Shown: positions 34,658 through 58,454, numbered from the stretch's first letter. The stretch: 59,412 bases of DNA from an uncultured Actinomycetes bacterium (GCA_903844115.1 CAIMSI010000007.1:1-59412); one strand, 5' to 3'. Made by a program: numbers and translations. The notes: generated by a model from the letters alone, not told the origin.

Positions 34658-34663
34658 GAAAAA

Positions 34664-35842: not shown

Positions 35843-36016
35843 GGTTTCTCCTCACCCTAAATCTCTACTTGAGACTTAAAGTTCTACTTATTCGGTTGCG
35901 TAAAAGTAAGACCGCATACACGCTCAAGCAAACACCGACACGATTTATTTACAAATAGTTATGACTGACTTAAAGATCGAAATATTCTCATTAAATCTAC
36001 TTCCCTTTATTTGGGA

Positions 36017-41803: not shown

Positions 41804-41804
41804 G

Positions 41805-42863: not shown

Positions 42864-44296
42864 TTTTCACCATCCTCTTCTAATTCTTCTAATTCTTCTA
42901 ATTCATTTACTTGACGAAGCGCCGCAGTTGCAATAATTTTTTCAGCAAGCTCCTCTAAATGCTCTGCTCTCGAAGCCTTAATGAGCACTACATCTCCATC
43001 TGAAAAATATTTAGTAATTCCTAGAGCCTCTTCCTGCGTTAAGAAATAATGAGTAGTCATCTCATCACCAGCATCAAAATCCAACTCCAAGCCGTCTAGG
43101 TACCAATCAGTTCCTACGCAGACGAGCTGATCGATTCCAAGGTCAGAGGCGAGTCTGCCAATCCTTCTGTGATCTTCTCCTTCGGACTCGCCGAGCTCCA
43201 GCATCTTGCCTAAAAACGCCCATGAAACTCCCCCTCGTTCCTGGGCCAGTAACGCCAAGGTCCTAAGAGCAGCTGCCGTACTTTCCGGATTAGCGTTATA
43301 CGAATCATTGACGATCAGAATCCCGCCTTCATCATGTAGTTCCATGCGCCACTTGCTCGCGTTATCGGCGGTAGATAGCGCGGCTGCGATTGAATCAATT
43401 TGAATTCCAAGCTCCGTAGCAACAGCGGCGGCGGCTAACGCGTTTGCAACTTGATGCAATCCAAGAAGGCGCAAACTTACGGGTGCGCGACCAGCCGGTG
43501 TCACTAAATCAAAATGTGCGCGGCCTTCCCGTGTTTCTATGTCCGCTGCGCGAATTTGGCAATCGGATGTTTCACCAAAGAATGTACGTTTAATTTTTTT
43601 CTGTGCACCCATTTGCGGTGTGAAAGTATCGTAGCGCCCAAGAATAGCTACGCCAGATTCCGGCAAAGAGTCAATGAGTTCTGCTTTTGTTTTTGCAATC
43701 GCCTCTTGGGAACCAAACTCTCCCATGTGCGCCGTTCCGACAACCAAAACTAGCCCAATTTGGGGTTTAGCAATTGTGCTTAGGAATTCAATTTCCCCAC
43801 TGTGTCGTGCGCCCATTTCGACGATGCAAAAGGTTGTGTCTTCAAAACAAGAAAGCACCGTAACTGGAACTCCAATTTCATTATTGAATGATCCAACAGG
43901 TGAAACGGTCTTTCCATGTGAACTTAAAATATGGTTAAGCAGATCCTTGGTCGTTGTTTTACCCTGAGATCCAGTGAGGCCAATAAAAGTGGTGTGCTCC
44001 ATCTTCTCACGGGCATACTTTGCCAGTGCAGTAAGCGCTGCCAAAGTATCCTTTACAAGAACTGATGGCACGTTCATGGCTTCTGTACAAAATACAAACT
44101 CTGCTCCAGCCGAAATAGCTTCACTGCAATACATATTTCCATCTACACGTTCGCCGGGTAACGCGACGAAGAATGTCCCCAATCCGGCTTTGCGGGAATC
44201 AATCACTGGAACTGCAGTTGTGATTCTGGTGGGATCCAATTGTGTAAGAGTTCCGCCGGTCACCTTTGAAATCTCCGCGAAAGTAATAGGAATCAT
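42860..44296 (-). CDS. murF: UDP-MurNAc-tripeptide--D-Ala-D-Ala ligase, with an acidic repeat C-terminal tail
   Basis: 478 aa Mur ligase ([11 protein letters not shown]). The C-terminus is ...[15 protein letters not shown]. Confidence 0.93.
42877..42903. repeat. 3 perfect tandem copies of a 9-bp unit (cttctaatt), in frame in the murF 3' end
   Basis: Read directly from the sequence. Encodes ELEELEELE on the minus strand. Lies 14-40 nt upstream of the mraY start. Confidence 0.92.
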
Positions 44297-45774
44297 GAGA
44301 GTTGCTCGATTGCTTTTGCTAATTCGATTCGATCATCGAATGAATATTTAATTCCATCAATCTCTTGCCCAACTTCATGGCCTTTTCCCAAAATGATGAC
44401 TGTATCTCCAGGTGTAGCCTCGGCAATCGCAACTGCGATCGCACCTCGACGATCTTCCTCCACCATCACATTTTCACCGTGTTTAATTTCTGATGACATT
44501 TGTTCGAGAATTTTACCTGGACTCTCACTTCGCGGGTTATCCGATGTAAGAATCGCAAAATCGCAACCAAGAACAAGGGCCTTGCCCATAAGTGGACGTT
44601 TTGAGGAATCTCTATCCCCTCCACAGCCCAGCACTGCAATTACGCGACCGGGGGTAATCTCACGAACAGCTGCTAAAACTCTCTCAACAGCATCCGGTGT
44701 ATGTGCATAATCCACCAGTGCTAAAAACTTCTGGCCTAGATCAACTTTCTCTAAGCGACCAGCTGGACCCTTAAGTTTATGCATATCCATCGAAATCGCT
44801 AATGGATCAATTCCACTTTCAACAGCAAGAGCAATTGCCATCAGCGCGTTGTCGAGATTGTGCTCACCAACTAATGGGAGGTGTCCCTCAATGAGAATTC
44901 CACCTACGCCTCGAATTGAAACGTCATAGCCGCCCGATGAAATCTGATGACTTGAGTAATGCCATGTAGCAAATGTTAAATCACGTGAAATTGTCTGAAC
45001 TGGAATTTGTGCAATCTCGATGAGCTTTTTTCCATAGGAGCTATCTATGTTGATAAAACCTTGTTCGGCATATTCTGGGGTGAATATTTTTGCTTTGACC
45101 TTGAAATATGTATCCATGTCCCCATGAAAGTCCAGGTGATCTTGGCTTAAATTAGTGAAAGCAACATTTGCGAAAAATGTACTCGAAATTCTTTTTGCAG
45201 CAATGGAATGGCTGCTCACCTCCATCACTAAATGATGGGCGTTGCGCTCAACCATACTCGCAACCACTGCCTGCAATTCAGGACTTTCGGGTGTTGTGAA
45301 ATGAGCCGGAAAATCTTCGCGCCCGATAGAAATACCCACAGTCCCAATAAATCCAGATTCTCTATTACTCAATTGCCACAATTGATGTAGAAGAGAGGCT
45401 GTTGTGGTCTTTCCGTTAGTCCCGGTGATGCCAACAGCGTGGAGAGACCTAAATGGCGAGTTATAAAACCACGCAGAAAGATCTCCTAAAATGAAGCGGG
45501 GATTTTCAATAATTACGACTGGTATTTCCTTGCTTACGAGCTCTGCCCCAGCGGGGTCAGTGAGTATCGCTGATGCTCCAGCCTTCATGGCTTGTGCTGC
45601 AAACTCTGCGCCGTGCCTGCGAGCTCCTGGAAGGGCAACGAATAAATCTCCAGCTTGAATATATTGAGTGGAGCTAGTGACTCCATTAAATGAAAAATTT
45701 TCTCGCCCATCATCGACGCCAAGAAAACGCGTGAGCTCTGCAGAGGTTCGCTGTGTTACTTCTAGCGGTCTCAT
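44293..45774 (-). CDS. murE: UDP-MurNAc-L-Ala-D-Glu--diamino acid ligase
   Basis: 493 aa Mur ligase (GITGTNGKTTT) with a C-terminal DNPR motif (TSDNPRSE). Confidence 0.94.
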   Translation of the reverse strand: MRPLEVTQRTSAELTRFLGVDDGRENFSFNGVTSSTQYIQAGDLFVALPGARRHGAEFAAQAMKAGASAILTDPAGAELVSKEIPVVIIENPRFILGDLSAWFYNSPFRSLHAVGITGTNGKTTTASLLHQLWQLSNRESGFIGTVGISIGREDFPAHFTTPESPELQAVVASMVERNAHHLVMEVSSHSIAAKRISSTFFANVAFTNLSQDHLDFHGDMDTYFKVKAKIFTPEYAEQGFINIDSSYGKKLIEIAQIPVQTISRDLTFATWHYSSHQISSGGYDVSIRGVGGILIEGHLPLVGEHNLDNALMAIALAVESGIDPLAISMDMHKLKGPAGRLEKVDLGQKFLALVDYAHTPDAVERVLAAVREITPGRVIAVLGCGGDRDSSKRPLMGKALVLGCDFAILTSDNPRSESPGKILEQMSSEIKHGENVMVEEDRRGAIAVAIAEATPGDTVIILGKGHEVGQEIDGIKYSFDDRIELAKAIEQLS

Positions 45775-45779
45775 TCGCG

Positions 45780-47579
45780 TTATGCCTTCTTTTTCTGCTG
45801 CTGCTTGTTTAATCCTGCCTCATTGAGCGCATACACAACCTTATTTGTATTTGTAGGTGGTACGTGCTTGCTTTGTAACACAAAACTCATAACAGTTTTG
45901 AAGACGGGAGCCGCAATTACACCACCGAAATGTTGGCCTTGTGGATTTTGAATTACTACTGAAACCACATATTTAGGCTGGTCGGCTGGGGCAAATCCAA
46001 TAAAACTTGAGGTATATCCCCGATAGCAATGGCACGTTGCATCAGCTCTTTGAGCAGTTCCTGTTTTACCTGCAATTCGGTAACCTGCAATTGCTGCTGC
46101 TGGAGCTGTTCCTTGTTCAGACACAACACTTTCCATCATCAGACGCATTTCTTGGGCGGTTTCTGCACTCACGACGCGAAGAGTTTGTTGAGGTTTTGAG
46201 GCGGTAAAGCTGCCAGATGAATCCACATAGCCGGCGATAACATTGGGAGTTACACGCACGCCATCATTTGCGATTGTTGCAAAAACACTTGTTGCCTGAA
46301 GTGCAGTCACTGAATAGCCCTGACCAAATGCAATTGTCGGTGCAGTTGTATCCGACCATGAATCTACTCGTGGTAACAGTCCAGCCGACTCTCCAGGAAG
46401 GTGAGATCCAGTGGATTGGCCGATACCAAATTTAGCAAGATAATTATAAAGATTAGAGTGTGAAAGCTGTTGGCCAATTTGAATTGCGCCAACATTGCTC
46501 GATTGAGCAAGCACTCCTGCTGTTGTCAGGCGCTGGGTCGCATGATGCTCTGCATCGTGGAATTTTGCGACTCCAACTTTTAGCGAATATGGAATAGTCC
46601 AAACCGTTTCTGGAGTTGTCTTGCCCTCTTCAATCGCCGACGCAATGGTAATGATTTTTCCTGTAGAGCCTGGTTCATAAACATCTTGTACCGCCGGATT
46701 ACGCAAACTCGTTAAAGATATGGACTTCTTATTTGATGGATCAAAGTTGGGGGCACTTGCTTGCGCCAAAATCTCACCTGTTTTTGGATTCATCACGACA
46801 ACTGTGCCTGAAGCTGCCTTCGCCGACTTCACGGCTTGTGAAATCGCATTCTGAGCAACCCATTGAATGTCTCGGTCGATAGTCAGTTGAATACCTTTGC
46901 CAGGTTTTGCATCAGTGAGGGTCTGCTGTGACCCAGGAATAATCGTTCCAGCTCCATTTGCATAGTCATATCGACCATTTTTTCCAGCAAGAGTGGTTTC
47001 CATACTTGATTCCAAACCGGAAGCTCCAACACCTGCATCATTGATAATTCCGACTAACGAAGCTGCTAATCGACCAGTTGGATAATCTCGAATATAAGAT
47101 CTTTCCGAAAAGAAGCCGACGATTCTCTTAGAGACTCCTCCACGCTGAGCCATGATTTTCTTATTATATGAATCAAGTGTTGTATTGAGATTAGCCCAAA
47201 TGGCAGGCGCTGCTTGTTTAAGAATGATTTGATATCGCTTACTTCCCGTTAATAAAGATGACAATTCAGAAGTACTCAGACCTAACACGGGGGCTGCAAT
47301 TGCCGCTGTGGTCATAGGGTCTGTGATCATGGTCTGATCCACAACAATATTTATAGCTGCAACACTTCGTGCCAATTCAAGTCCATTGACGTCGGTGATG
47401 GTTCCGCGGGGTGCAAGCAAGATTGAAGAATTCCACATTTCATTGCTAGCGCGTTGGGCAAATCCGCTGGCTTGTACTGCTTGTACATCAATGAGTCGGA
47501 TTGAAAAGATTGAAAAGATAAATCCAGCCAGAACAATGAGTGCATAAATCCGTCTTTGGAATGCGGCTCTCTCGCTCAT
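45780..47579 (-). CDS. ftsI: Class B penicillin-binding protein (FtsI / PBP3-like)
   Basis: 599 aa. TM anchor and transpeptidase motifs STGK (PGSTGKI) and KTGT (AGKTGTA). Confidence 0.93.
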   Translation of the reverse strand: MSERAAFQRRIYALIVLAGFIFSIFSIRLIDVQAVQASGFAQRASNEMWNSSILLAPRGTITDVNGLELARSVAAINIVVDQTMITDPMTTAAIAAPVLGLSTSELSSLLTGSKRYQIILKQAAPAIWANLNTTLDSYNKKIMAQRGGVSKRIVGFFSERSYIRDYPTGRLAASLVGIINDAGVGASGLESSMETTLAGKNGRYDYANGAGTIIPGSQQTLTDAKPGKGIQLTIDRDIQWVAQNAISQAVKSAKAASGTVVVMNPKTGEILAQASAPNFDPSNKKSISLTSLRNPAVQDVYEPGSTGKIITIASAIEEGKTTPETVWTIPYSLKVGVAKFHDAEHHATQRLTTAGVLAQSSNVGAIQIGQQLSHSNLYNYLAKFGIGQSTGSHLPGESAGLLPRVDSWSDTTAPTIAFGQGYSVTALQATSVFATIANDGVRVTPNVIAGYVDSSGSFTASKPQQTLRVVSAETAQEMRLMMESVVSEQGTAPAAAIAGYRIAGKTGTAQRADATCHCYRGYTSSFIGFAPADQPKYVVSVVIQNPQGQHFGGVIAAPVFKTVMSFVLQSKHVPPTNTNKVVYALNEAGLNKQQQKKKA

Positions 47580-47965
47580 TTGGCTGGCACCGAAATATCA
47601 ATGAATTGAGGGTTGCTTGCTGGAACCATTCCCATCTTTTTTGCCAACGTAGAGAGATTCTCTGGTGATGAAGAAACCGCCATACTTCGCAGAATTGCGT
47701 CGCGTTGATCATTCGTTACATTCACATTGTGCTTCAGACGTTGAAGCACAAATGCATCTTGCGTGAGTAAGGTGTTGATCAGGAGAAGTGACAATAGACC
47801 AACACCAAAAATACCGCTCAAAACAAAGAAGAATGCACGAGCATGAATCTCCTCGCCTTCCTCCTTTTTGAGCTCAGGGACTAGTTGCAATACGGCTTGA
47901 GTCGAGCGAGAAATAACAAGTTCGCGTGAACGCGCGATTGCCGGAGCTAGAAATGAAGTCGCCAC
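47576..47965 (-). CDS. ftsL: Cell division protein FtsL-like (single-TM septation protein)
   Basis: 129 aa with one central TM segment. Lies between rsmH and ftsI. Its GTG overlaps the rsmH TAG by 1 nt. Confidence 0.7.
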   Translation of the reverse strand: MATSFLAPAIARSRELVISRSTQAVLQLVPELKKEEGEEIHARAFFFVLSGIFGVGLLSLLLINTLLTQDAFVLQRLKHNVNVTNDQRDAILRSMAVSSSPENLSTLAKKMGMVPASNPQFIDISVPAK

Positions 47966-48927
47966 TATGCAGCTACTCTCTCAACAGCGCGAAGTCGCAT
48001 ACTCTGCGCGCGCGGATTTTCAGAAATTTCATTCTCTGTTGCAGACTCGCTGCCAGTAATGACAAAGGAAAATTTTGCAGCAGAATTCGGAAGTTCCACT
48101 GGTAAGTTTCTAGGAGTTGTCGAAGTGCAAGCCTTTGTGAAAAAGCTCTTTACGATTTTGTCTTCTAGACTTTGATACGACATCACGACTATGCGGCCTG
48201 AAATCACAAGTGCATCCATTGCGGCAGGAATAGCGCGTTCTAGAACTTCAAGCTCCTGATTAACTTCAATTCGTAGCGCTTGGAAGGTGCGTTTGGCTGG
48301 GTTTCCACCGGTGCGTCGAGCCGGGGCGGGGATGCTGTCTTTAACAAGCTGCGCCAGATCCAGAGTGCTATTTAAGGAATTGTCTGCGCGTGCGGCAATG
48401 ATGTTATCTGCAATACGCGGGGCAAACTTTTCATCCCCATATGCGCGAAGAATTCGGATAAGAGAATCCCGATCGTAAGTATCGAGTAACTCCTTGGCGC
48501 TCATGCCCTGGCTTTGATCCATACGCATATCAAGAGGGGCATCTTGCGAGTAAGCAAAACCGCGATTAGCTTCATCGAGCTGCATCGAGGAAACACCAAG
48601 GTCAAAAAGTGCACCATCAATATGAGAAAGCTGAAGATCTTCCAAAGTTTTTGCTATCTGATCATAAACCGCGTGAACAATAGTTAGTCGATCTCCATAT
48701 GGAGAAACGTTTTCTCGGGCAATTGCTATTGCAGAGGTGTCGCGATCAAAACCAATCACGTGAAGCGATGGATACTTTTCTAGAAGAGCGCGAGTATGTC
48801 CGCCAAGTCCAAGAGTTGCATCAATAATAAGTGCTGAACCACGAGCACTGATTGCTTTTTCAATTGCAGGAGCAAGAAGATTGACACAACGATCAAGGGC
48901 TACTGGAATATGACGCAGCTCTTGCAT
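47965..48927 (-). CDS. rsmH: 16S rRNA (cytosine1402-N4)-methyltransferase
   Basis: 320 aa with the SAM-binding motif DATLGLGGH. Strong SD GGGGAGGAAGG. Confidence 0.95.
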   Translation of the reverse strand: MQELRHIPVALDRCVNLLAPAIEKAISARGSALIIDATLGLGGHTRALLEKYPSLHVIGFDRDTSAIAIARENVSPYGDRLTIVHAVYDQIAKTLEDLQLSHIDGALFDLGVSSMQLDEANRGFAYSQDAPLDMRMDQSQGMSAKELLDTYDRDSLIRILRAYGDEKFAPRIADNIIAARADNSLNSTLDLAQLVKDSIPAPARRTGGNPAKRTFQALRIEVNQELEVLERAIPAAMDALVISGRIVVMSYQSLEDKIVKSFFTKACTSTTPRNLPVELPNSAAKFSFVITGSESATENEISENPRAQSMRLRAVERVAA

Positions 48928-49136
48928 ATTGCCTTCCTCCCCACTTCTTGTTTCACTCGTTTCTATATTTTGTTTTTCTTTACTTAGGTCACCGTCGACC
49001 GACGGAATTCGCTTCTGCTTATTAGGATGCTGCTGCAGTGCGTTGGGGGAAGCGGCGCCGGGGAAGTGGCGTCGCTTTGCGCTAAAGTCGACGATGGCCT
49101 AAATAAAGAACTTCTTAGATTTAGAACATTTATTTC
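48928..49136 (-). promoter_or_regulatory. 209-nt structured mraZ-rsmH spacer; candidate rsmH (mraW) 5'-leader RNA element
   Basis: On the transcript there is a hairpin GTCGACTTTAGCGCAAAGCGAC and a hairpin CCGTCGGTCGACGG. Two CUUCCCC(C) tracts (from 49066-49060 and 49052-49045) are complementary to the rsmH SD GGGGAGG (48943-48937). An Actinobacteria-specific mraW leader motif has been described. Confidence 0.4.
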
Positions 49137-49568
49137 CTAGAAGAGTCCGGGCAGCACCTCCGTTGATACATCTGCGAAACCTTTCTCGCGATCGGCCAGG
49201 TAGGTATTCCACGAAGCGGAATCCCAAATTTCTAAACGGGTGTTCGCACCAATAACAACGCAATCTTTTTCGAGTGCTGCATATGTGCGTAAACCAGCCG
49301 GGATGGAAATACGTCCTTGCTTGTCCGGGACTTCATCGTGAGCGCCGGCGAACATCACGCGCATGTAATCGCGTGCTGCTTTCTCGGTGACGGGAGCTTG
49401 ACGCAGGCGCTCAGTGATGGAGGTAAATTCTTTTGATGGGAATACGTACAGGCATCGCTCTTGACCCTTAGTAACAACTAGGCCATTGGATAGTTCATCG
49501 CGGAAACGGGCTGGAAGGATGATGCGGCCTTTTTCATCGAGCTTTGGCTCATGAGTGCCCAGAAACAT
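49137..49568 (-). CDS. mraZ: Transcriptional regulator MraZ
   Basis: 143 aa with two SpoVT/AbrB-like halves, each carrying a D-x-x-x-R motif: [10 protein letters not shown] and [10 protein letters not shown]. First gene of the dcw cluster. Confidence 0.95.
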
Positions 49569-49644
49569 CTATCCACCTCCCCCTAGAACGTGTGGGTTTA
49601 TCCTGAAATTTGAAGCTCAAATCCCCCGATTCTTGCTTCATGCA

Positions 49645-49723
49645 CCACTTTACTCCACTTTCCCCCAAAATCAACCACCTTTACCCATTTTTCTCCCAAT
49701 CGACCCCCGCTCGCCCACTTTTT
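49645..49723 (-). promoter_or_regulatory. Array of five helically phased AAAGTGG-type direct repeats (candidate MraZ boxes) upstream of mraZ
   Basis: On the mraZ sense strand: AAAGTGGG, AAAATGGG, AAAGGTGG, AAAGTGGA, AAAGTGGT. Plus-strand CCAC cores start at 49645, 49655, 49675, about 49685 and 49715, so all are in 10-bp register. Confidence 0.6.
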
Positions 49724-49755
49724 CCCCACGCCGCCTAGCCGACTACTCTGACGCC

Positions 49756-50694
49756 GTGCCTACTGAAAAATCGGATGAGTTGATTACGGCCAAGGGCCTG
49801 TCCAAGCTCTATGGCGATTTTGTGGCGGTCAACGGCATTGATTTCAGCGTTCATAAAGGAGAGTCCTTTGGCTTTCTAGGCCCGAACGGCGCCGGAAAAT
49901 CCACAATTATGAGAATCATCGCTGCCACATTGACTCGCACATCCGGTGAAATCACCGTCCTTGGCAAAGACCCAGCCGACCGGGGTCCAGAAATTCGTGC
50001 TCATCTAGGTGTTGTGCCTCAACAAGATAATTTGGATCAGGCGCTGAGCGTCACTGACAATTTATATATATACGGTCGATATTTTGGACTTTCAAGAAAA
50101 TTTATCAACGCAAAAATCGAGGAGCTACTTGATTTTGCGCAACTAACTGAGAAGCGCGATGCAAAAGTTGAAATGCTAAGCGGCGGCATGAAACGTCGTC
50201 TAACTATTGCGCGCGCACTTATCAGCGAACCAGAAATATTGATGCTCGATGAACCAACAACAGGACTTGATCCACAAGCACGTCATATCCTCTGGGATCG
50301 GCTATTTCGTTTAAAAGAACAAGGTGTGACCTTACTTATCACCACTCACTACATGGATGAAGCTGAACAATTGTGTGACCGTTTGATGGTCCTAGATAAA
50401 GGTTCAATCATGGCCGAGGACTCCCCTGCAGGATTAATCAAAAAATATGTTACAAAAGAAGTTTTGGAGGTGCGTTTCGGTTCTGAGCGAAATGCTGAAG
50501 TATCCGAGCAACTGGGTGCACTGTGTGCACGCATCGAAGTACTTCCCGACCGCATTTTAATGTATGCAGATGATGCTGAAAAAGTACTGGAAGAAATTCA
50601 TAAATCCGGACTCCATCCAGTTACGTCACTTGTCCGCAGGAGTTCACTTGAAGATGTATTCCTACGACTAACAGGACGTACTCTCGTTGAGTAA
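49756..50694 (+). CDS. ABC transporter ATP-binding protein (ABC-2 / NodI-DrrA-like exporter ATPase)
   Basis: Walker A GPNGAGKST, signature LSGGMKRR, Walker B LMLDEPT. Start is GTG 49756, or TTG 49780 (MITAKGLSKLYG...). The 49555 start in the ORF track would overlap mraZ and its promoter. Confidence 0.88.
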   Translation: MPTEKSDELITAKGLSKLYGDFVAVNGIDFSVHKGESFGFLGPNGAGKSTIMRIIAATLTRTSGEITVLGKDPADRGPEIRAHLGVVPQQDNLDQALSVTDNLYIYGRYFGLSRKFINAKIEELLDFAQLTEKRDAKVEMLSGGMKRRLTIARALISEPEILMLDEPTTGLDPQARHILWDRLFRLKEQGVTLLITTHYMDEAEQLCDRLMVLDKGSIMAEDSPAGLIKKYVTKEVLEVRFGSERNAEVSEQLGALCARIEVLPDRILMYADDAEKVLEEIHKSGLHPVTSLVRRSSLEDVFLRLTGRTLVE

Positions 50695-50722
50695 CTTGAG
50701 CAATTTGAGCAATTTGAGAAAA
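50687..50722. repeat. 4 tandem copies of a 9-bp unit (ttgagtaac/ttgagcaat/ttgagcaat/ttgagaaaa) across the ATPase stop and permease start
   Basis: Read directly from the sequence. In the permease frame it encodes M-SNL-SNL-SNL. The ATPase TAA (50692-50694) lies inside the first unit. Confidence 0.9.
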
Positions 50723-51565
50723 GGGTCGAATAAAACCCTTACGCGGCAAGGTTCTCTCATTGTCGTAGATGTAGACCGTGCAATCCGCCTAGGCACTTTA
50801 TTTGTTGTGGAAGCACGTTTGCGCACAATGGCAAAATGGATACTTTCCCTTCTCACAAGCTCCTTGCTTAATCCTTTTTTCTACTTAATGTCCCTGGGTA
50901 TCGGCGTTGGTACTTTCATAAACGCACGAGCGGGTACTGCCGGTATCGATGGTGAAAAATACATTGTCTTTCTTGCTCCCGCACTCCTTGCAGCGGTTGC
51001 TATTCAAGATTTCATGAGCGAAGTTACATTCCCAGTCTTGCAAGGATTCAAATGGGATAAGACTTACTTCGCTATGAACGCCACTCCATTAGGTGGGCGC
51101 CAGATTGCACTTGGCACATATTTTTCATCAGCGCTAAGAACGATTGGTTCGATTCTGATCTACTTTGCAGTCCTTGTTGCATTTGGCGCGGTACAGCCTG
51201 GTCGAGCCTGGCCCATGATGCTTACCTCCTTCTATGCCGCGGCTTGTTTTGCAGCCGTCATGCTGGCAGCTGCTGCTGCCTCAGAAAACGATGACCTCTT
51301 TCTCAATCTAATGGGGCGCTTATTGATTATGCCGCTCTTTCTTTTCTCCGGAACCTTTTACCCACTAACTTCTATGCCTATTGTTTTGCAAGCAATTGGG
51401 TGGATTTCCCCGTTGTGGCATTCCACTGAGCTGGGACGTTGGGTCAGTTACGGACACCATATTTCAGGGACAATGATTTTCATTCACTTCGCATATCTGG
51501 CGGCGATGCTCGTAGGTGGGCTCTTATGGGCATTCAACCGATTTGAATACCGGTTATCCAAATGA
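50687..51565 (+). CDS. ABC-2 type transporter permease (first of two)
   Basis: About 290 aa with 6 predicted TM segments, following the ATPase. The start is uncertain: the TTG at 50687 is one of several in-frame TTGs within the repeat. Confidence 0.8.
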   Translation: MSNLSNLSNLRKGSNKTLTRQGSLIVVDVDRAIRLGTLFVVEARLRTMAKWILSLLTSSLLNPFFYLMSLGIGVGTFINARAGTAGIDGEKYIVFLAPALLAAVAIQDFMSEVTFPVLQGFKWDKTYFAMNATPLGGRQIALGTYFSSALRTIGSILIYFAVLVAFGAVQPGRAWPMMLTSFYAAACFAAVMLAAAAASENDDLFLNLMGRLLIMPLFLFSGTFYPLTSMPIVLQAIGWISPLWHSTELGRWVSYGHHISGTMIFIHFAYLAAMLVGGLLWAFNRFEYRLSK

Positions 51566-52392
51566 TTACATCAGCAGCTGTAGCAATCGCAGAAGCGCGC
51601 ATTGGACGCCGAGGTGAATCTGTTTACTCTGGGCGAGCCAGAACAATTATCGAGCGCTCATATCTAGCTTTTAGATCATCGACATGGATAGTTGTTGCTA
51701 CTGGTTTTCTTGAGCCAGTTCTATACCTTGTTTCATTTGGTTTTGGAGTTGGAAAACTTATTGGGAAAATTGAAGTTGCTCCCGGCCACTTTGTTTCATA
51801 CGCGGCTTTCATTGCTCCCGCTTTGCTCGCAACGAGCGCCATGAACGGTGCGATTTATGACGCCACTTGGAATGTCTTCTTCAAATTAAGATTTGATCGG
51901 GTTTACCAAGGAATGCTTGCCACTTCCCTTGGACCATTAGATGTGGCACTTGGTGAAATTGGGTGGGCCCTGCTGCGAGGCATGCTTTACGCAATTGCTT
52001 TCATGTCGATTCTCGGCGGGGTCGGTTTGATCACAACTCCTTGGGCTTTACTCGCCATCCCTTGCGCAGTACTTATTTCTTTTGGATTTGCTGCGGTCGG
52101 AATGGCTGTCACCACATACATGAAATCCTTTGAGCAAATGAATCTCATTAATATTGTATTGCTCCCAATGTTTTTATTTTCTGGATCGTTTTATCCACTA
52201 AGTATTTATCCTGGATGGCTGCAAGCTTTTATCAAGGTGCTCCCACTTTGGCATGGGGTTGCGCTAATTCGCTCAGTTTCATTAGGGATATTTAGTGCAG
52301 CACTCATCCCACATATCCTTTATTTTGTCGTGATGATTATTTTTGGGTTGTACTTCACTACCCGCAGATTAACTCTGCTTTTCATGCGATAA
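51562..52392 (+). CDS. ABC-2 type transporter permease (second of two)
   Basis: 276 aa polytopic protein. ATGA overlap with the preceding permease. Confidence 0.85.
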   Translation: MITSAAVAIAEARIGRRGESVYSGRARTIIERSYLAFRSSTWIVVATGFLEPVLYLVSFGFGVGKLIGKIEVAPGHFVSYAAFIAPALLATSAMNGAIYDATWNVFFKLRFDRVYQGMLATSLGPLDVALGEIGWALLRGMLYAIAFMSILGGVGLITTPWALLAIPCAVLISFGFAAVGMAVTTYMKSFEQMNLINIVLLPMFLFSGSFYPLSIYPGWLQAFIKVLPLWHGVALIRSVSLGIFSAALIPHILYFVVMIIFGLYFTTRRLTLLFMR

Positions 52393-52410: not shown

Positions 52411-52779
52411 TTACTTATCGAAGTTGCGACGATCCCAACGCTCTTCAAGTCGATCTCCCCAAGCCTTCTTTTGTTTCTTGCCACCTGATGTTGTGGAGGT
52501 TGCACTCTTTAATTTAGTTGCAGAGAAATTAGAAATAATGAGAAATGTTCCGATAAGAGAAATAATAAATCCAGCAATTCCCAAAGGTGGTAGCTGGGCA
52601 ATTAAGCCAGTAAGGAGAATTGCCATTCCACCAAAGAGAGCAATCACGCCTGAAAGGACTCGACCACTTTGAGGAGTGCGAATTTTTCCACTCAGAGTAG
52701 ATACGAGGCGTGGATCATCCTGCTCGAGAGCGGCTTCCATCTCGGCGAGTAGTTTGCGTTCATGTTCGGAAAGTGGCAC
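52411..52779 (-). CDS. DUF3040-family small membrane protein
   Basis: 122 aa. N-terminal PLSEHERKLLAEMEAALEQDDPRL helix followed by two TM segments. Its GTG start lies 3 nt after the dinB TAG. Confidence 0.8.
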   Translation of the reverse strand: MPLSEHERKLLAEMEAALEQDDPRLVSTLSGKIRTPQSGRVLSGVIALFGGMAILLTGLIAQLPPLGIAGFIISLIGTFLIISNFSATKLKSATSTTSGGKKQKKAWGDRLEERWDRRNFDK

Positions 52780-52782
52780 GGG

Positions 52783-53985
52783 CTAAGAATAGGACAGGTC
52801 TTCGGGGTCTACCAGCCGCGCGGGCCGCACACTGCCCGTTCCAAAGCGCGCCGTGGCCCGATCGATGGCCTCAGTAGCTTCTCGCCACCCCTTTTCACGC
52901 TCGCCAAGCTGTAATTGCTGGGGGGCGCCTGACTGATCGATCAGATTTTCTAAGCCAACGCCCACCAAACGTAATCGTGCTCGGTCTAGTTTCAGAGCAA
53001 GATAAAGCTTCTTCACAACCTCATAACATTCCTGAACTCCTGAAACCGGCAGGTCCACGGTCTTGGAGCGACTGATTGTCTTGAAATCTGCAAAGCGGAC
53101 TTTGATGGAAATAGTTTGGGCAGCCAAATCTCGGGCACGCATTCGCCCAGTGGCCTTTTCAATTAAACGTAAGAACTCGCGCAATATTTCATCCGGGTCA
53201 TCGAGATCTTCGGCAAATGTTTCAGCGGCGCTAATACTTTTATCTGGTTCATCTGGTGTTACATCTCGATAATCCCTTCCCCATGCAAGTTCGTAAAGGG
53301 AAGCTCCCGCTCCTTCACCTAGTGCTCGTATTAAGGTTGAACGAGGAGTATGCGCAATATCAGAAACTGTTCGTAAACCAAGTCGTTGTAGTTCTTCATT
53401 TGTTTTTGGCCCAACTCCCCAAATAGCACTGACGGGAAGTGGATGAAGAAATTCCAAAACTCGGTCGGGTCCAATTTCTAGTAAGCCATCTGGTTTGCAA
53501 TGTTGGGAAGCAAGTTTTGCAATGAACTTGGTTGAAGCAATTCCAACAGAGCATGTTATTCCTTGACTCGAAAAAACTTCCTTGCGAATAAGTTCACCAA
53601 TTTCTCTGCCAGTACCTTTGAGTCGATGCGAACCGGTTACATCGAGAAATGCCTCATCGAGTGAAATCGGCTCAACAAGTGGCGTATAAGAATGAAAAAT
53701 TTCCATCACATGTGAGGAAACTTCACTGTAGCGGGCGTGATCGGGTGCGATAAATATTGCTTGGGGTGCCATTCGTTGTGCTCGGCTCACGGGCATCGCT
53801 GCGCGAATTCCTAATTTGCGGGCTGCATAATTTGCGGAAAGAACCACACCTCGTGCGCCCGCGCCAACGACAACTTGCTTGCCTTTCAAAGTTGGATCAT
53901 CGCGTTCGGCAACGGAAGCGTAGAAAGCATCCATGTCGATGTGAAGGATGGTCGAGAAGATTACTGATGTAGCTTCTTCACTCAC
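52783..53985 (-). CDS. dinB: Y-family DNA polymerase IV (DinB-like) with catalytic acidic residues intact
   Basis: 400 aa. Motifs HIDMDAFYASV and SLDEAFLDVTG, an HhH region (GVGPKT), and a possible clamp-binding motif QQLQLG near the C-terminus. Its GTG start overlaps the dnaE2 stop by 8 nt. Confidence 0.9.
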   Translation of the reverse strand: MSEEATSVIFSTILHIDMDAFYASVAERDDPTLKGKQVVVGAGARGVVLSANYAARKLGIRAAMPVSRAQRMAPQAIFIAPDHARYSEVSSHVMEIFHSYTPLVEPISLDEAFLDVTGSHRLKGTGREIGELIRKEVFSSQGITCSVGIASTKFIAKLASQHCKPDGLLEIGPDRVLEFLHPLPVSAIWGVGPKTNEELQRLGLRTVSDIAHTPRSTLIRALGEGAGASLYELAWGRDYRDVTPDEPDKSISAAETFAEDLDDPDEILREFLRLIEKATGRMRARDLAAQTISIKVRFADFKTISRSKTVDLPVSGVQECYEVVKKLYLALKLDRARLRLVGVGLENLIDQSGAPQQLQLGEREKGWREATEAIDRATARFGTGSVRPARLVDPEDLSYS

Positions 53986-56900
53986 CTGTATCCCCCACTT
54001 TCATTTCGTTCACTTCTGAAAGGCTACGCCACTTGGAATATGACTCACCCAATTCCCACGCGGATAAAGCTCTCAAAGAGATACCTCGTGCGCCAGTTTT
54101 TCGCACAACTCCGCGCACTAAGAAGAGCCATGAGTGATAGAGCAAGTTGGCATGATCACCTTGAACATTTTCAAAAAAAGTCACATCATTGCAGCCATAA
54201 CCATCATCGAGAGTAAGAAACATGACTCGTCTGCCAGAGCGAACGGGTGGAGTTTGAAGAGCAACTTTCACTCCCGCCACAAGAACAGTGGCACCAGAAC
54301 GCTGGTGGATGAGATCTGAAGAACGGATGGCGCCAACGGAATTAAGAAATTCTCCATAAAACTCCATCATGTGATGTGAGATATCCATACCCGTAAGGTC
54401 TACTTCATGTCGTATTCGCTCTGCTGGAGTGAGATCTGGAAGACCGCTTGCTTCTAGAGTGGAAGGAACTAATTGCAGAGCCATCTGCCCACCACCTTTA
54501 TTGCGGCCAAATTTATCTAAATCATGAAAATGCAGAAGAAGATCTCGGCGATTAATTCCTTGACCGACATAGAGTGAATCAAATGCTCCTACAAGTAAGA
54601 GCGCCTTTGTTGTGGGGGCAGATGCCCCAGACCGATGAGTGAAATCAGCAAGATCTACGTAAGGACGATTGGCAAGTATCGAATCAATTTCTTTTTCATT
54701 GGCGCCCTGTATATCTGCAAGTCCCATCCGGATTGCATATCCTCTAGCGTCAGGCAAAGTAAGTATGGCGCCGGTACTCGCGGTATTAGGCGCTTCATAA
54801 GGTGGACGAGCTCCATCAACATTAACTTTCTCAACACAATAACTTTTCTCCGAGCGATTAATATCTATCGGGGCAATCTCAATTCCCCACTGGCGTGCTT
54901 CATCTACGATAACTCGCCGGGGATACATGCCCGGATCATGAGTAAGAACTCCGGCAAGAAACGCAGCTGTGTGATGGCTCTTAAGCCATGCTGATTGATA
55001 TGTAGGAAGAGCAAAAGCTGCAGCATGAGCTTTGCAAAACCCAAAAGATGCAAAAGCTCGAAGAATCTCCCAGACCTGCGTGATCAGTGAAAGCTCATAT
55101 CCTTGTGAAATTGCAGCCGGATAAAACCAGTCACATACTTCTTGCTGGCTTTCGAAAGTTCCTAGTTCCCTTCTCTTCTCGTCAGCCTGTGCAAGTGAAA
55201 TACCAGTCATGAGAGCAATAATGCGTATTACCTGCTCGTGGAAAACAACGACGCCTTCAGTCTCATGCAAAATCTCATCAAGATCTGGGTGGATGACTGG
55301 CTTACTTCTAAAGCCATGGCGCGTATTAATAAATGGCGTAATCATGTCGCTTTTTACTGGGCCAGGGCGAAAAAGTGAGATATCAATAATCAAGTCAGTA
55401 AATGTTTGGGGTGCAAATTTTCCTACAAGCTCGCGCTGACCAGGACTTTCGATTTGGAAAAGACCCAAGGTCCTAGTGGATTTAATAAGATCAAAAGTAA
55501 GTGAATCATCTAAGGCAATCGCATCGATATCGATTTTTGTGCCTTCTACCCTTTCAATTTCTTGAAGAGAGTACGCAATTGCTGATTGCATACGCACACC
55601 CAGCACATCGAGCTTTAGTAAGCCGACCGCTTCCACATCATCTTTATCGTATTGAACCATCTGGTATCCACTGGCGTTAATTTCAGTAGGAGCAATATCT
55701 AAAAGCTTCTTATCTGAAAGAAGAACAGCGCACGGGTGCATAGAAAGATGCCGTGGCAGTCCATCCAACCGACCGGCAAGATGGATGGCGGTCTTCATAA
55801 GCGGTGTATCGAGTTTGAGGTTCTTGAGTTCAGGTAAATTTTCTAAAGCCTTGCCGATATTACGAGCACGGATATGTGGAAGTGATTTTGCAATTAAATC
55901 AATCTCCATGGGTGAAATTCCTAAAGCGGCGCCAACATCGCGAATCGCATGACGCGCACGATACGTCTCGACCATTGAAACAGTGGCTGTGCGCTCTGGC
56001 CCAAAACGTTCAAAAATTGCATCATAAATTTCTAGCCTTCTGGCTGATTCCACATCAATATCAATATCAGGAAGTTCATTGCGAAGAGTTGAGCAGAAAC
56101 GTTCCATCAATAAACCCTGGCTCATGGGTTCAACTCCAGAGATCCCTAAGAGATAACAGATCAAAGAGCCTGCTCCACTGCCACGAGCAGCAACACGAAT
56201 TCCTTTCGACCGTGCAGTATCTGCGATATCCGCAACGGCAAGAAAATATGCTTCATATCCCAAGGTTCGAACTGTTGCGAGTTCTTCTTCTAGTCGCTGC
56301 GCTGCTTGGACCGATAGCGCTCCGCTATAACGATGTAGACCTGATTCACTGCGCCGCCGCAACTGTTCAGCAAGCTCTTCGTGGCGTTGGGCGCCAAACA
56401 TCTGGGGTTCTGGCAAATGAATAGATCCAATTCCTACATCACGACGTGGGGAAAGAATTGCACGCTCTGCCCATTCTGATGTTGTGCGAAGAAGTAGTCG
56501 GCCGTTGCTCTCCCCTGCCGCACGAGATACCTCATCAGCAATCAAAGCCATCTCTGCTTCGTTCTTAAGATAAGCCTCGGAGTTACTCCGTTCAATATGG
56601 CGCTGGTGCAGCGGCACAAGAAGCCTGGCCGAATCAAGGACATCAGCGACAGGTCCATCCGTACGATCGAGCATTCGTACAGCGTTGGAAATCACTGCAG
56701 GGATATCGTGCTTCCGGGCAAATCCTAAGAGCTTTGCTGCATGAGCTATTGAAAAAGGCCCATCCCCTTTTGAGCGGTGTGAAATAACTTCGATAGCTTG
56801 ATCAGCAAAGAGTTCTTTTGCAGAGTGGAAAATAGAGAGCGCCGATTCATCACGCCTGGCAGCGATAGTGGATGCAAGGTATGAATCAGGCCCGTGAAGA

Positions 56901-57262
56901 GCAAGTATCTGAGAAGAATATTGCGAGAACTTTTCTAAAGTTTCGAAAGTAAGAACTTTTTCATTTGCAGTATCTCTATTAACAGCGCTCACTAATCGAT
57001 AGAGCGCCGGCAGTGAACCAGCTTGGGCTAAAAGAGTGATGCGATATTTCTTCTGTAAAAAACTGAGATTGACTCCGAGGATGGGGGCGACCCCATGGGA
57101 TTCGCATTCTTGAACGAAACGAATAGCCCCTGCCATTCCATCCCGATCAGTAAGAGCAAGAGCGCTCATCCCAAATTCAGCAGCACGCTCTACTAATTGT
57201 CCAGCAGAAGCGGTGCCATATTTAAATGAGTAGCCACTTGCTACATGAAGGTGTGTAAACAT
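53978..57262 (-). CDS. dnaE2: Error-prone DNA polymerase III alpha paralog (DnaE2 / ImuC)
   Basis: 1094 aa. PHP N-terminus MFTHLHVASGYSFKYG and a pol III alpha core. It is the second alpha paralog in the window and its length is typical of DnaE2. Sits behind an SOS-box promoter. Confidence 0.9.
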   Translation of the reverse strand: MFTHLHVASGYSFKYGTASAGQLVERAAEFGMSALALTDRDGMAGAIRFVQECESHGVAPILGVNLSFLQKKYRITLLAQAGSLPALYRLVSAVNRDTANEKVLTFETLEKFSQYSSQILALHGPDSYLASTIAARRDESALSIFHSAKELFADQAIEVISHRSKGDGPFSIAHAAKLLGFARKHDIPAVISNAVRMLDRTDGPVADVLDSARLLVPLHQRHIERSNSEAYLKNEAEMALIADEVSRAAGESNGRLLLRTTSEWAERAILSPRRDVGIGSIHLPEPQMFGAQRHEELAEQLRRRSESGLHRYSGALSVQAAQRLEEELATVRTLGYEAYFLAVADIADTARSKGIRVAARGSGAGSLICYLLGISGVEPMSQGLLMERFCSTLRNELPDIDIDVESARRLEIYDAIFERFGPERTATVSMVETYRARHAIRDVGAALGISPMEIDLIAKSLPHIRARNIGKALENLPELKNLKLDTPLMKTAIHLAGRLDGLPRHLSMHPCAVLLSDKKLLDIAPTEINASGYQMVQYDKDDVEAVGLLKLDVLGVRMQSAIAYSLQEIERVEGTKIDIDAIALDDSLTFDLIKSTRTLGLFQIESPGQRELVGKFAPQTFTDLIIDISLFRPGPVKSDMITPFINTRHGFRSKPVIHPDLDEILHETEGVVVFHEQVIRIIALMTGISLAQADEKRRELGTFESQQEVCDWFYPAAISQGYELSLITQVWEILRAFASFGFCKAHAAAFALPTYQSAWLKSHHTAAFLAGVLTHDPGMYPRRVIVDEARQWGIEIAPIDINRSEKSYCVEKVNVDGARPPYEAPNTASTGAILTLPDARGYAIRMGLADIQGANEKEIDSILANRPYVDLADFTHRSGASAPTTKALLLVGAFDSLYVGQGINRRDLLLHFHDLDKFGRNKGGGQMALQLVPSTLEASGLPDLTPAERIRHEVDLTGMDISHHMMEFYGEFLNSVGAIRSSDLIHQRSGATVLVAGVKVALQTPPVRSGRRVMFLTLDDGYGCNDVTFFENVQGDHANLLYHSWLFLVRGVVRKTGARGISLRALSAWELGESYSKWRSLSEVNEMKVGDTGE

Positions 57263-57281
57263 TTTTATTTATTTATTTAGG

Positions 57282-57602
57282 TTATGCAGGCCGAGAGGTG
57301 GGACGAATAATCCATTTGCCGGTGAGCTCATCGAGTTCAATTTCAAAGGTAGCGAGCGCACCCACAGGGGCAGCCTCTACCCGCCAAATGGCCCGGCCCC
57401 CATCATTGAAGATCGATTGTTCAAGATGTGCCGAGTTATGAAGAGCTCCATCGCTAATGCGATTCCACCATCCTCCTGATTCTTGCCAACGCGACAAGAT
57501 GTTATGGATGTGAAAGCGGTGGCCGCGATAGATGAACTCGATGGGTTCACCCTCAGGCGCCAGCACGCGAGGTTCAGGGGCGGAGGCAGGTTGTTCGAAC
57601 AT
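57282..57602 (-). CDS. 106-aa protein resembling the C-terminal domain of ImuB-type proteins (DUF6504-like); first gene of the dnaE2 operon
   Basis: ORF MFEQPAS...PIEFIYRGHRFHIHNILSRWQESGGWWNR...AIWRVEAAP...FEIELDELTGKWIIRP. The F-x-[WY]-R-G...W-x-E-x-G-x-W-W...W-R-V-E pattern matches my recollection of ImuB C-termini, which I have not verified. The ATG lies inside the LexA box. Confidence 0.65.
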   Translation of the reverse strand: MFEQPASAPEPRVLAPEGEPIEFIYRGHRFHIHNILSRWQESGGWWNRISDGALHNSAHLEQSIFNDGGRAIWRVEAAPVGALATFEIELDELTGKWIIRPTSRPA

Positions 57603-57610
57603 ATGTTCGA
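57595..57610. promoter_or_regulatory. LexA (SOS) box TCGAAC-ATAT-GTTCGA
   Basis: Perfect palindromic match to the actinobacterial/Gram-positive consensus TCGAAC-N4-GTTCGA. Overlaps the miniprotein ATG (57602-57600). Confidence 0.85.
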
Positions 57611-57634
57611 AAGATAACTGGGGGTACCGACAAG
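57611..57634 (-). promoter_or_regulatory. RecA-NDp / PafBC-type DNA-damage promoter (TTGTCGGTA-N8-TATCTT)
   Basis: The minus strand reads cTTGCACTTGTCGGTAcccccagtTATCTT, versus the published actinobacterial motif tTGTCRgtg-N8-TAnnnT. The -10 ends 8 nt before the ATG, so the transcript would be leaderless or nearly so. Confidence 0.6.
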
Positions 57635-57655
57635 TGCAAGCTCCGCCCTAATCAA

Positions 57656-57685
57656 CCCGAGTAGGCCCGAGTAGGCCCGAGTAGC
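57656..57685. repeat. 3 tandem copies of a 10-bp unit (cccgagtagg x2, cccgagtagc)
   Basis: Read directly from the sequence. Lies in the divergent region between the dnaE2 operon promoter and the TauE gene, ending 26 nt before the TauE ATG. Confidence 0.92.
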
Positions 57686-57710
57686 TGAGAGCCAGTGAGA
57701 GGATTGAGCC

Positions 57711-58454
57711 ATGATCCTGGCCCTGATGAGCGGTGCTTTCATCGGAGCCGTACTGGGCTTCGTCGGAGCTGGCGGGGCGATGATTTCCGTCCCAATCTTG
57801 CTCTACCTTTTTCATTTCTCAGCAGCCCAAGCAACAACTGCCGCCCTAGCCATCGTTTTCATTGCCGCGTTTGCTGGAGTACTTCCTAAAATAAAATCAG
57901 GAGATGTCTTATTTCGTGAGGCATTTTCGATCTGGGCAATTGGATTTATTTCCAATGTTGGTGGCGCAGCGCTAGCAAAACACCTACCTGATACCAGTAT
58001 TTTGATTGGATTCGCCGGAGTCATGATCGTGGCCGGTGCATCGATGTTGCGCGGGCCAGTAAAGGCTCGTCCAGAAAAACGGATGAGGCCCACCGCCTTG
58101 ATTCTAATTTCACTCACTATCGGCGCCATGACAGGAATTTTTGGTATCGGTGGAGGCTTTCTTGCTATCCCCGTTCTTGTGCTCTTTTATAACACCCCTC
58201 ATAAGAAAGCATCTGGTACTTCACTTCTTATCATTACTCTTAATTGCCTCACCTCATTTGTGGCCCACCAAAGCCAATGGCACACAATTCAATGGCGTAC
58301 TCCTATCACAATAGGCTTAGGGGCCATCGTGGTTTCGACAATCGCCTCTCATAACAGCTCAAAAGTAAACGCACGCGTACTCCAAAAAGTCTTTGCTTGG
58401 CTGCTATTTTCCCTTGCTGCATTTACAATTATCCATACACTCATAGGTACTTAA
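57711..58454 (+). CDS. TauE/SafE-family (DUF81) anion exporter
   Basis: 247 aa polytopic protein with duplicated GxGGG motifs (GFVGAGGAMISVP and GIFGIGGGFLAIP). Confidence 0.85.
   Translation: MILALMSGAFIGAVLGFVGAGGAMISVPILLYLFHFSAAQATTAALAIVFIAAFAGVLPKIKSGDVLFREAFSIWAIGFISNVGGAALAKHLPDTSILIGFAGVMIVAGASMLRGPVKARPEKRMRPTALILISLTIGAMTGIFGIGGGFLAIPVLVLFYNTPHKKASGTSLLIITLNCLTSFVAHQSQWHTIQWRTPITIGLGAIVVSTIASHNSSKVNARVLQKVFAWLLFSLAAFTIIHTLIGT

Follow-up and report, generated by a model that had tools for sequence, protein, structure and literature searches.

How might a bacterium pair a DnaE2-type polymerase with a Y-family polymerase for damage-induced lesion bypass when neither ImuA′ nor ImuB is at hand? 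The question is raised by a group of minus-strand genes in a 59 kb stretch of DNA (~46% GC) from an uncultured Actinomycetes bacterium (GCA_903844115.1, CAIMSI010000007.1:1-59412), referred to below as the window. We consider it probable that three of these genes (imuB-C, dnaE2, dinB) form a translesion-synthesis operon under LexA repression that is of the DnaE2B–PolY–ImuB-C–RecA type and is carried by a freshwater actinobacterium of the acI lineage. The open reading frame (ORF) read-out of the window places four consecutive minus-strand ORFs at 52411-57602:

57282-57602, minus strand: imuB-C-like gene, encoding a standalone DUF6504 protein (the miniprotein) of 106 aa; Pfam PF20114, E 3.2e-9
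57263-57281, minus strand: 19-nt spacer between imuB-C and dnaE2, CCTAAATAAATAAATAAAA, with no Shine-Dalgarno sequence
53978-57262, minus strand: dnaE2, DnaE2B group, 1094 aa; full Pol III alpha set in Pfam (PHP/DNA_pol3_alpha/finger/HHH_6/OB)
52783-53985, minus strand: dinB, PolY-core type, 400 aa; Pfam IMS + IMS_HHH + IMS_C
52411-52779, minus strand: DUF3040 / SCO2097-family small membrane protein, 122 aa, GTG start; Pfam PF11239, E 2.9e-19

The original prediction, made from the sequence alone, described four packed genes joined by a 19-nt AT-only spacer, an 8-nt overlap, and a 3-nt gap. The ORFs and junction sequences bear out the coordinates, the 8-nt overlap of the dnaE2 stop with the dinB start (GTGAGTGA), and the 3-nt gap between dinB and DUF3040; the spacer has the predicted length but, with A or T at 17/19 positions, is not AT-only. 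It is made up of (A)TAAA repeats with three further TAA triplets, and dnaE2, which has no Shine-Dalgarno sequence, is presumably translated via coupling, re-initiation, or an A-rich unstructured RNA. As had also been predicted, there is no imuA′- or imuB-like gene among the annotated ORFs of the window, and no ImuA/ImuA′ gene lies in or beside the operon in the window and 80 related loci. The replicative DnaE1 (1203 aa; 23253-26864, minus strand) is the only other C-family polymerase in the window, so the 1094-aa protein is a second, accessory one.

Conservation of the Locus in Nanopelagicaceae

The locus is conserved far beyond chance and is under strong selection. Relatives were found in 132 species representatives by scanning a genome collection with very clade-specific peptide patterns, and the scan therefore covers Nanopelagicaceae only; locus counts use the best 80 of the 132. 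These 80 are freshwater actinobacterial metagenome-assembled and single-cell genomes, the top match being 90% identical, and their lower-rank labels are all Nanopelagicaceae/acI bar a few evident misassignments. Homologues of the miniprotein come from freshwater metagenomes. A survey of the DnaE2 neighborhood in relatives, which had been proposed along with the original prediction, finds the order imuB-C, dnaE2, dinB, DUF3040 (then mraZ) in 64/66 loci that extend far enough. The junctions in relatives are as follows:

imuB-C to dnaE2: gap, median 6 nt
dnaE2/dinB: overlaps of 4-23 nt in nearly all
dinB to DUF3040: gap of 3-126 nt, median 57
DUF3040 to mraZ: gap of about 200 nt

Nanopelagicaceae are among the most abundant freshwater bacteria, with genomes of about 1.2-1.4 Mb, and the module is near-universally retained in them with an unchanging SOS operator. 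The retention of about 5 kb in such streamlined genomes points to strong selection, in sunlit waters, for damage-induced bypass of lesions.

A few loci depart from this layout. In L069 (4314-5627) dnaE2 is followed by a glutamine synthetase gene in place of dinB, and in L086 (4784-6151) by an opposite-strand gene, the DnaE2 ORF of the latter apparently lacking a normal N-terminus; both loci, which fall inside the same clade or close to it, have ImuB-C and DnaE2 only. L038 (7376-8735) and L036 (7377-8718) carry an AbiEi antitoxin/AbiEii nucleotidyltransferase toxin pair (type IV) between imuB-C and dnaE2, an insertion that sits inside the SOS operon, 3′ of the LexA box.

A LexA Box on the Start Codon

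At the head of the operon we find a promoter-like pair of hexamers and an operator:

57634-57639, minus strand: −35-like hexamer TTGCAC, 17 nt upstream of the −10 hexamer; putative promoter function
57611-57616, minus strand: −10-like hexamer TATCTT (TANNNT type), 8 nt upstream of the imuB-C ATG
57595-57610, palindromic on both strands: perfect 16-bp actinobacterial LexA box TCGAACATATGTTCGA, with the imuB-C ATG at its center

The box is the sole zero-mismatch match in the window to the actinobacterial LexA box TCGAAC-N4-GTTCGA, for which an arithmetic estimate gives ~0.004 perfect 16-bp occurrences by chance per 59 kb. It agrees with the motif tCGAAC-N4-GNNCGa determined for Streptomyces venezuelae LexA by chromatin immunoprecipitation sequencing (PMC9380542). 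The identical 16-mer with its centered ATG recurs in 79/80 related loci; the eightieth, L027, has an N-masked stretch in the gene and its MFE start further upstream. The −10 region GTTATCTT is invariant across four aligned loci, and CTTGCAC/CTTGTGC in the −35 region is conserved in L003, L005, and L006 between diverged flanks. A scan with consensus sigma-70 and terminator models recovered neither this promoter nor that of DUF3040, and no convincing terminators; both promoters were recognized by conservation. Between TATCTT and the imuB-C ATG there is no Shine-Dalgarno sequence, from which we infer that the transcript is leaderless or has a leader of about 2 nt.

Since the start codon carries a perfect LexA box, the three-gene unit is predicted to be SOS-controlled, and the damage inducibility claimed for the locus at the outset is borne out at the level of sequence. 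The box also leaves its mark on the protein: since it spans the start codon, the miniprotein begins with an invariant M-F-E (ATG TTC GAA), and the next 10-30 residues are hypervariable. Residues 4-12 of the window protein (57567-57593), which link MFE to the VLAPEGEP core, belong to a low-complexity segment of hypervariable length (0 to about 30 residues); in L027 (6750-7000) tandem DQQVP repeats stand between MFE and the core. Across the window, LexA-like sites with up to two mismatches number 5 against 2.4 expected. A one-mismatch site at 14678-14693 (TCGAACCATGGTTGGA) was considered as a second operator and rejected, as it lies inside the coding region of a PALP/pyridoxal phosphate (PLP)-dependent enzyme (14099-15307) and is most likely a chance match.

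The Polymerases and a Published Module Type

ImuB-C was defined by Aravind et al. in 2013, together with standalone forms beside DinB or DnaE2 (PMC3765255), and ImuA-less variants with standalone ImuB-C modules were described by Timinskas and Venclovas in 2019 (PMC6511836). In Nucleic Acids Research in 2026, Timinskas, Kazlauskas, Timinskas, and Venclovas distinguished 11 module types, of which one, found in Actinobacteria only, comprises DnaE2B, an active PolY, a standalone ImuB-C, and RecA; its exemplars are Tessaracoccus lapidicaptus, Janibacter indicus, and Kineococcus radiotolerans (PMC12926913). The locus matches this type in its three adjacent genes and their order, in the DnaE2B group, in the standalone DUF6504-type ImuB-C, in an intact PolY-core DinB (48% identical) with the tail QL.LG…GW.eA..A.DrA.aRFG.gSVrPA, in its restriction to Actinobacteria, and in a lineage whose genomes appear to be without ImuA/ImuB. 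Given this match, the locus is a member of a known, computationally defined module type rather than an undescribed arrangement, and the initial view that the arrangement had not been characterized does not stand.

The assignment of the larger polymerase follows from its pairwise identities:

43.4%: Streptomyces “dnaE” (DnaE2B), co-operonic with an inactive PolY
42.7%: Arthrobacter plasmid “dnaE” (DnaE2B), behind a DUF6504 gene
39%: Tessaracoccus lapidicaptus DnaE2B, first 400 aa
28.2%: canonical DnaE2A “error-prone DNA polymerase” beside imuA′-imuB
26.7%: the window’s own DnaE1

These values place the 1094-aa polymerase in the DnaE2B group, not with DnaE2A. Its catalytic motifs are intact (PDIDID at 398, KLDVLG at 550), and its best NCBIfam match is “error-prone DNA polymerase”, below that model’s cut-off.

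DinB likewise appears catalytically intact by motif, as had been predicted for the Y-family gene coupled to dnaE2: it keeps D17-M-D19 and S108-L-D110-E111, and the DMD..FY and SLDE motifs are kept in 65/65 orthologues. It matches the NCBIfam DNA polymerase IV model at 374 bits, above cut-off, and is 48% identical over its full length to the T. lapidicaptus PolY VEP41451. Two candidate interaction motifs lie in its tail:

52903-52917, minus strand: clamp-binding-like motif QLQLG, DinB residues 357-361; QL.L then G is kept in 65 orthologue tails
52813-52890, minus strand: RecA-N-terminus-like (RecA-NT-like) motif GWREATEAIDRATARFGTGSVRPARL, DinB residues 366-391; family consensus GWReAt.AiD.A.aRFG.gSVRPARL

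The putative clamp motif occupies the position of QLVLG or QVALD in published examples, and the RecA-NT-like motif is near-identical to the tails of the published DnaE2B–PolY–ImuB-C–RecA examples. A hidden Markov model (HMM) of 13 RecA N-termini scores the DinB tails at a median of 6.5 bits and the window tail at 7.4, against a maximum of 3.1 for 390 shuffled or reversed controls. Pfam DUF4113 gives no match on DinB at E ≤ 1.

Four Nanopelagicaceae genomes, Ca. Planktophila dulcis and sulfonica and Ca. Nanopelagicus limnes and hibericus, are each tabulated with one DnaE1, one DnaE2B, no DnaE2A, and one Y-family member, of the PolY-core kind (PMC12926913). Since the single Y-family member of these complete genomes is PolY-core, ImuB is absent from them.

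The locus departs from the published type in some respects. It resides in low-GC, streamlined (about 1.2-1.4 Mb) freshwater acI genomes, not in high-GC soil actinomycetes; its miniprotein shares only 28% identity and contains a variable loop of 22 residues; and it has a LexA box on the start codon. The paper gives no regulation or dcw/DUF3040 context. What we add to the type is the start-codon-embedded predicted LexA operator with the resulting MFE N-terminus, the near-universal retention of the module in streamlined acI genomes, and the separate predicted promoter and dcw affiliation of DUF3040.

Is the Miniprotein an ImuB-C?

The 106-aa protein was originally said to carry a pattern reminiscent of ImuB C-termini and DUF6504. 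The DUF6504 half of this holds (Pfam E value above). Its relation to ImuB is less direct, and the label ImuB-C-like rests mainly on the literature. By sequence, the miniprotein is a member of what Timinskas et al. call the standalone ImuB-C family (PMC12926913): it is 28% identical to the T. lapidicaptus “ImuB-C” VEP41449 (E 2e-8), and the published ImuB-C proteins VEP41449 and QBR94233 themselves match Pfam DUF6504 at 1e-13 and 1e-16. A link between ImuB-C and the DUF6504-type family has been asserted in three papers using PSI-BLAST, HMMs, and modeling (PMC3765255, PMC6511836, PMC12926913). The description of the ImuB-C superfamily as small, all-beta proteins that conserve a C-terminal Trp and basic residues and lack any catalytic pattern fits the miniprotein, in whose family W97 is invariant and R74, R100, R38, and R48 are nearly so. 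With the miniprotein in a family that the literature classes as standalone ImuB-C, the initial description of a split or rewired ImuB is a fair one.

Structure prediction is consistent with this assignment. The AlphaFold2 model of the miniprotein is all-beta with 7-8 strands (22-25, 28-42/45-48, 71-78, 84-91, 96-101) and a predicted local distance difference test score (pLDDT) of 69; that of the ImuB C-domain has a pLDDT of about 90 and strands at 450-453, 456-471, 480-489, 494-500, and 503-510. The strand order is alike in the two around the W..WW and R-V-E/Q motifs, and the main difference is the post-WW loop, 22 residues in the miniprotein and 8 in the ImuB C-domain. A Foldseek comparison of the miniprotein model with PDB structures yielded nothing at E < 0.4, and PDB sequence searches with the miniprotein and canonical ImuB returned nothing useful, so neither protein has a structure in the PDB. 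The lack of a fold match agrees with the term “novel fold” that Aravind et al. used for ImuB-C (PMC3765255).

Direct comparison with ImuB itself yields several results that weigh against the assignment, and they are what one would expect if the miniprotein were an unrelated small beta-protein whose resemblance to the ImuB C-terminus is motif-level convergence. Pfam DUF6504 has no match on the canonical actinobacterial ImuB of a Streptomyces plasmid imuA′-imuB-dnaE2 cassette, and 120 relatives of this ImuB carry only PF00817. In hhalign, narrow or broad DUF6504 profiles align weakly with an ImuB C-terminal alignment (P about 0.04-0.09), pairing P..F.WRGR..V..W.E.g.WW of DUF6504 with ..V.GWAGPWPv.E.WW of the ImuB C-terminus; with the loop excised, the comparison is equaled or beaten by 37/200 column shuffles. 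A HMMER scan with the acI miniprotein profile against 1.8 billion representatives gave 137 matches, nearly all standalone proteins of about 100 aa and none of ImuB length. The reciprocal HMM test is marginal and barely above controls; still, 6/108 ImuBs are matched by the DUF6504 HMM with 9.8-13.6 bits, in every case at the extreme C-terminus (within the last 75 or so residues), against at most 8.0 for 432 controls. This hit pattern, the shared strand order, the position of the gene directly upstream of dnaE2, where an ImuB-C function is expected, and the linking of the families by three independent publications argue against convergence, and we regard an unrelated origin as quite unlikely. 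A DNA-damage-binding or regulatory role has been suggested for ImuB-C-like proteins by Aravind et al. (PMC3765255).

Among the scan matches, P0241, P0258, P0264, P0267, P0269, P0273, and P0274 are eukaryote-like proteins of 600-2100 aa with up to 27 Tudor-like repeats (…KFKEGEKVEAQYKGKSKFYPGVISRCRLNGTYDIDYDDGEKE…). They score on the N-terminal half of the DUF6504 profile and are probably repeat-inflated; they recall the SH3/Tudor-like barrel that Aravind et al. suggested for ImuB-C. A tblastn search of plasmids with the miniprotein found only Nonomuraea.

A Working Model and Its Weak Points

In the proposed model, DNA damage would activate RecA and lead to LexA self-cleavage, which would free the box at the transcription start and allow synthesis of a leaderless or near-leaderless polycistronic mRNA. 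The beta-barrel miniprotein would then bind DnaE2's PHP domain, and DinB would supply the clamp tether and recruit RecA via its RecA-NT motif, in place of ImuB and ImuA′. The resulting complex would hold two active polymerases that bypass lesions. The ImuB-C/PHP interface has been described for the canonical system, and AlphaFold-Multimer models of DnaE2B–PolY–ImuB-C–RecA from five other species have interface predicted template modeling scores of about 0.84-0.87 (PMC12926913).

At this locus both complex formation and a mutagenic output are conjectural, and several points count against the model. Complex formation is predicted from these published AlphaFold models of other species, and the transcription start from spacing only. 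The function of the module type is a computational prediction, and “mutagenesis” remains a presumption for DnaE2B systems; in Streptomyces, no part in error-prone repair was found for DnaE2B (PMC3273824). ImuB-C–DnaE2B pairs also exist without a PolY (Arthrobacter plasmid, L069, L086), so DinB may not be an obligate partner.

The last point leads to a different account, in which the genes are co-regulated but their products work independently: DinB would be a stand-alone Pol IV that binds the clamp and perhaps RecA, the miniprotein and DnaE2 would form a separate two-subunit enzyme, and there would be no four-part mutasome. The Arthrobacter plasmid (L002), the published DnaE2B-ImuBC type, L069, and L086 all show the pair with no adjacent PolY. 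DinB is moreover the sole Y-family polymerase in complete Nanopelagicaceae genomes and must therefore also do generic Pol IV tasks, and the RecA-NT motif is widespread in PolY proteins that have no DnaE2 partner, PolY-RecA being the most abundant type. Yet nearly all relatives have a 4-23 nt overlap of dnaE2 with dinB, and a fusion-type coupling of the two is seen again in Streptomyces and in other phyla. Tetramers are predicted with confidence in the published multimer models of this module type, and the canonical DnaE2–ImuB contacts include the PolY thumb. Independent action seems to us unlikely, and a DnaE2–DinB–miniprotein module with RecA remains our working model.

The mycobacterial mutasome, which drives drug-resistance mutations, is regarded as an evolutionary relative of the module type. 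The type is so far a computationally defined one (PMC12926913). The small operon is a compact candidate for reconstitution. None of this would overturn current views.

DUF3040, an Adjacent Gene

The original prediction counted the membrane DUF3040 protein as a co-transcribed partner behind a single promoter region. The conserved −35/−10 pair with the LexA box on the start codon supports one such region at the head of the operon, but DUF3040 has a conserved −10 of its own:

52786-52791, minus strand: −10-like hexamer TATTCT, predicted leaderless-type promoter of DUF3040, directly adjoining the stop codon of dinB and 6 nt ahead of the GTG

In the window, TAT and TCT, the final two sense codons of dinB ahead of its stop, make up this hexamer. 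A TANNNT hexamer begins at −12/−13 from the DUF3040 start codon in 60/60 loci including the window (L011-L090 range), and TTGGAC/TTCGAC −35-like boxes precede DUF3040 where the dinB-DUF3040 spacer is longer. With its own conserved −10 box at DUF3040, the SOS unit has three genes, not four, and DUF3040 would mainly be transcribed from this predicted leaderless promoter. The protein has two predicted membrane helices and reaches 103 bits against NCBIfam SCO2097_fam, under the cut-off of 110. Its family, SCO2097/Rv2169c/Cgl2168, is an actinobacterial signature gene linked to envelope synthesis (PMC12554045, PMC4255298) and lies upstream of mraZ and dcw in Corynebacterium, Mycobacterium, and Streptomyces (PMC12554045); in relatives of the window DUF3040 always lies between dinB and mraZ. 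The window protein resembles these family members in its Pfam family, its place upstream of mraZ/dcw, and its two predicted helices. It differs in that in the window subclade the gene abuts dinB (3 nt) and an ABC-2 operon separates it from mraZ. We take DUF3040 to be probably an adjacent gene and not part of the polymerase module, and the predicted role as a co-transcribed mutasome partner is not borne out.

A true four-gene operon, in which DUF3040 is co-transcribed from the SOS promoter and takes part in the damage response, for example as an envelope or division modulator, would accord with the 3-nt dinB-DUF3040 gap in the window and its closest relatives, with the lack of a convincing terminator between the two genes, and with the presence of DUF3040 after dinB in every informative acI locus. 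The known actinobacterial SOS division inhibitors ChiZ and DivS are, like it, small membrane proteins. In most relatives, however, the gap is 12-126 nt (median 57), and besides the −10 found in 60/60 loci many have −35-like boxes. Members of the family also lie upstream of mraZ/dcw in actinobacteria that have no polymerase cassette, and the published modules of this type are without DUF3040. We consider such an operon very unlikely.

The three-gene unit does not preclude some contact with DUF3040: the gap, reduced to 3 nt in the window subclade, makes read-through from the SOS operon possible, and any SOS effect on DUF3040 would come by that route. The fullest statement of what acI bacteria might do would be that a DnaE2B/ImuB-C operon under LexA control has their sole Y-family polymerase hard-wired into it, that the operator in the leaderless start codon dictates Met-Phe-Glu, and that SOS read-through into DUF3040, 3 nt away, couples damage to envelope or division control. 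As a whole this is unlikely; if true, the read-through would be a new kind of checkpoint wiring.

Next to DUF3040, an ABC-2-type transporter operon (ATPase + two permeases; 49555-52392, plus strand) lies between DUF3040 and mraZ, convergent with DUF3040. The closest relatives (L006-L008) have the ABC-2 operon at the same place; in acI of the L003 type, mraZ follows directly after DUF3040.

Comparison with Other Known Systems

The ImuA′–ImuB–DnaE2 mutasome of Mycobacterium tuberculosis (Warner et al. 2010; Gessner et al. 2023, PMC10421592) and the locus are both SOS-inducible, by prediction for the locus. Each pairs a C-family DnaE2 with a Y-family protein bearing clamp and RecA-NT-like motifs, and each has an ImuB-C-type beta domain proposed to bind DnaE2. 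The Y-family protein is intact here and dead there, and here it ends after the RecA-NT-like motif; the ImuB-C part, fused to ImuB in M. tuberculosis, is a separate 106-aa protein. The locus has no ImuA′, for which RecA is the presumed substitute, all its genes are in one operon, and its DnaE2 is of the B group, 28% identical to DnaE2A.

The closest experimentally studied relative is the Streptomyces dnaE2–dinB2/dinP system (DnaE2B–iPolY–RecA; Tsai et al. 2012, PMC3273824; Stratton et al. 2022, PMC9380542), whose DnaE2B is 43% identical. In both, dnaE2 shares a few bases with the Y-family gene. The Streptomyces genes are LexA-bound and induced 6- to 30-fold by ultraviolet light (UV), methyl methanesulfonate (MMS), or mitomycin C (MMC) (PMC9380542, PMC3273824), and Streptomyces DnaE2 has no demonstrated role in mutagenesis, its role there having been called “a mystery” (PMC3273824). 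Unlike at the locus, the Streptomyces Y-family partner is inactive and truncated, there is no ImuB-C gene, and SOS boxes are found upstream of dnaE2 or inside it instead of on a start codon. Table 1 of PMC9380542 also lists a S. venezuelae plasmid pair, pvnz_37140-37135, in which a DNA polymerase IV gene comes after a “hypothetical protein” that is LexA-bound and MMC-induced. Judged by annotation, this pair may be a standalone ImuB-C–PolY module with existing induction data.

The two-gene DnaE2B–ImuB-C module (Arthrobacter alpinus type; plasmid pYA7-1a of Arthrobacter sp. YA7-1) shares with the locus a DUF6504 gene directly upstream of DnaE2B (42.7%), but no Y-family polymerase follows it. On pYA7-1a (L002:9292-9993) DUF6504–dnaE2B is flanked, on the other strand, by a gene for an SOS-response-associated peptidase (SRAP), another family tied to mutagenic polymerases by Aravind et al. 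(PMC3765255). This copy on a conjugative plasmid shows that the two-gene DUF6504–dnaE2B module is mobile.

Surroundings of the Locus

Divergent from the SOS operon lies a TauE-family gene (57711-58454, plus strand), and between it and the SOS promoter a perfect 10-nt unit, CCCGAGTAGG, is repeated in tandem at 57656-57684 (2.9 copies); the repeat is not conserved in L003 or L006. A 121-aa ORF at 57377-57742 that overlaps the locus was weighed as a gene and rejected. On the other side, the dcw cell-division cluster is placed at about 34600-49568 (minus strand) by ORF order and sizes, with mraZ (49137-49568) confirmed by Pfam and a SepF gene just downstream of the cluster at 32823-33329. Ordinary core-genome genes, including His/Trp biosynthesis genes and IleS, are also present in the window.

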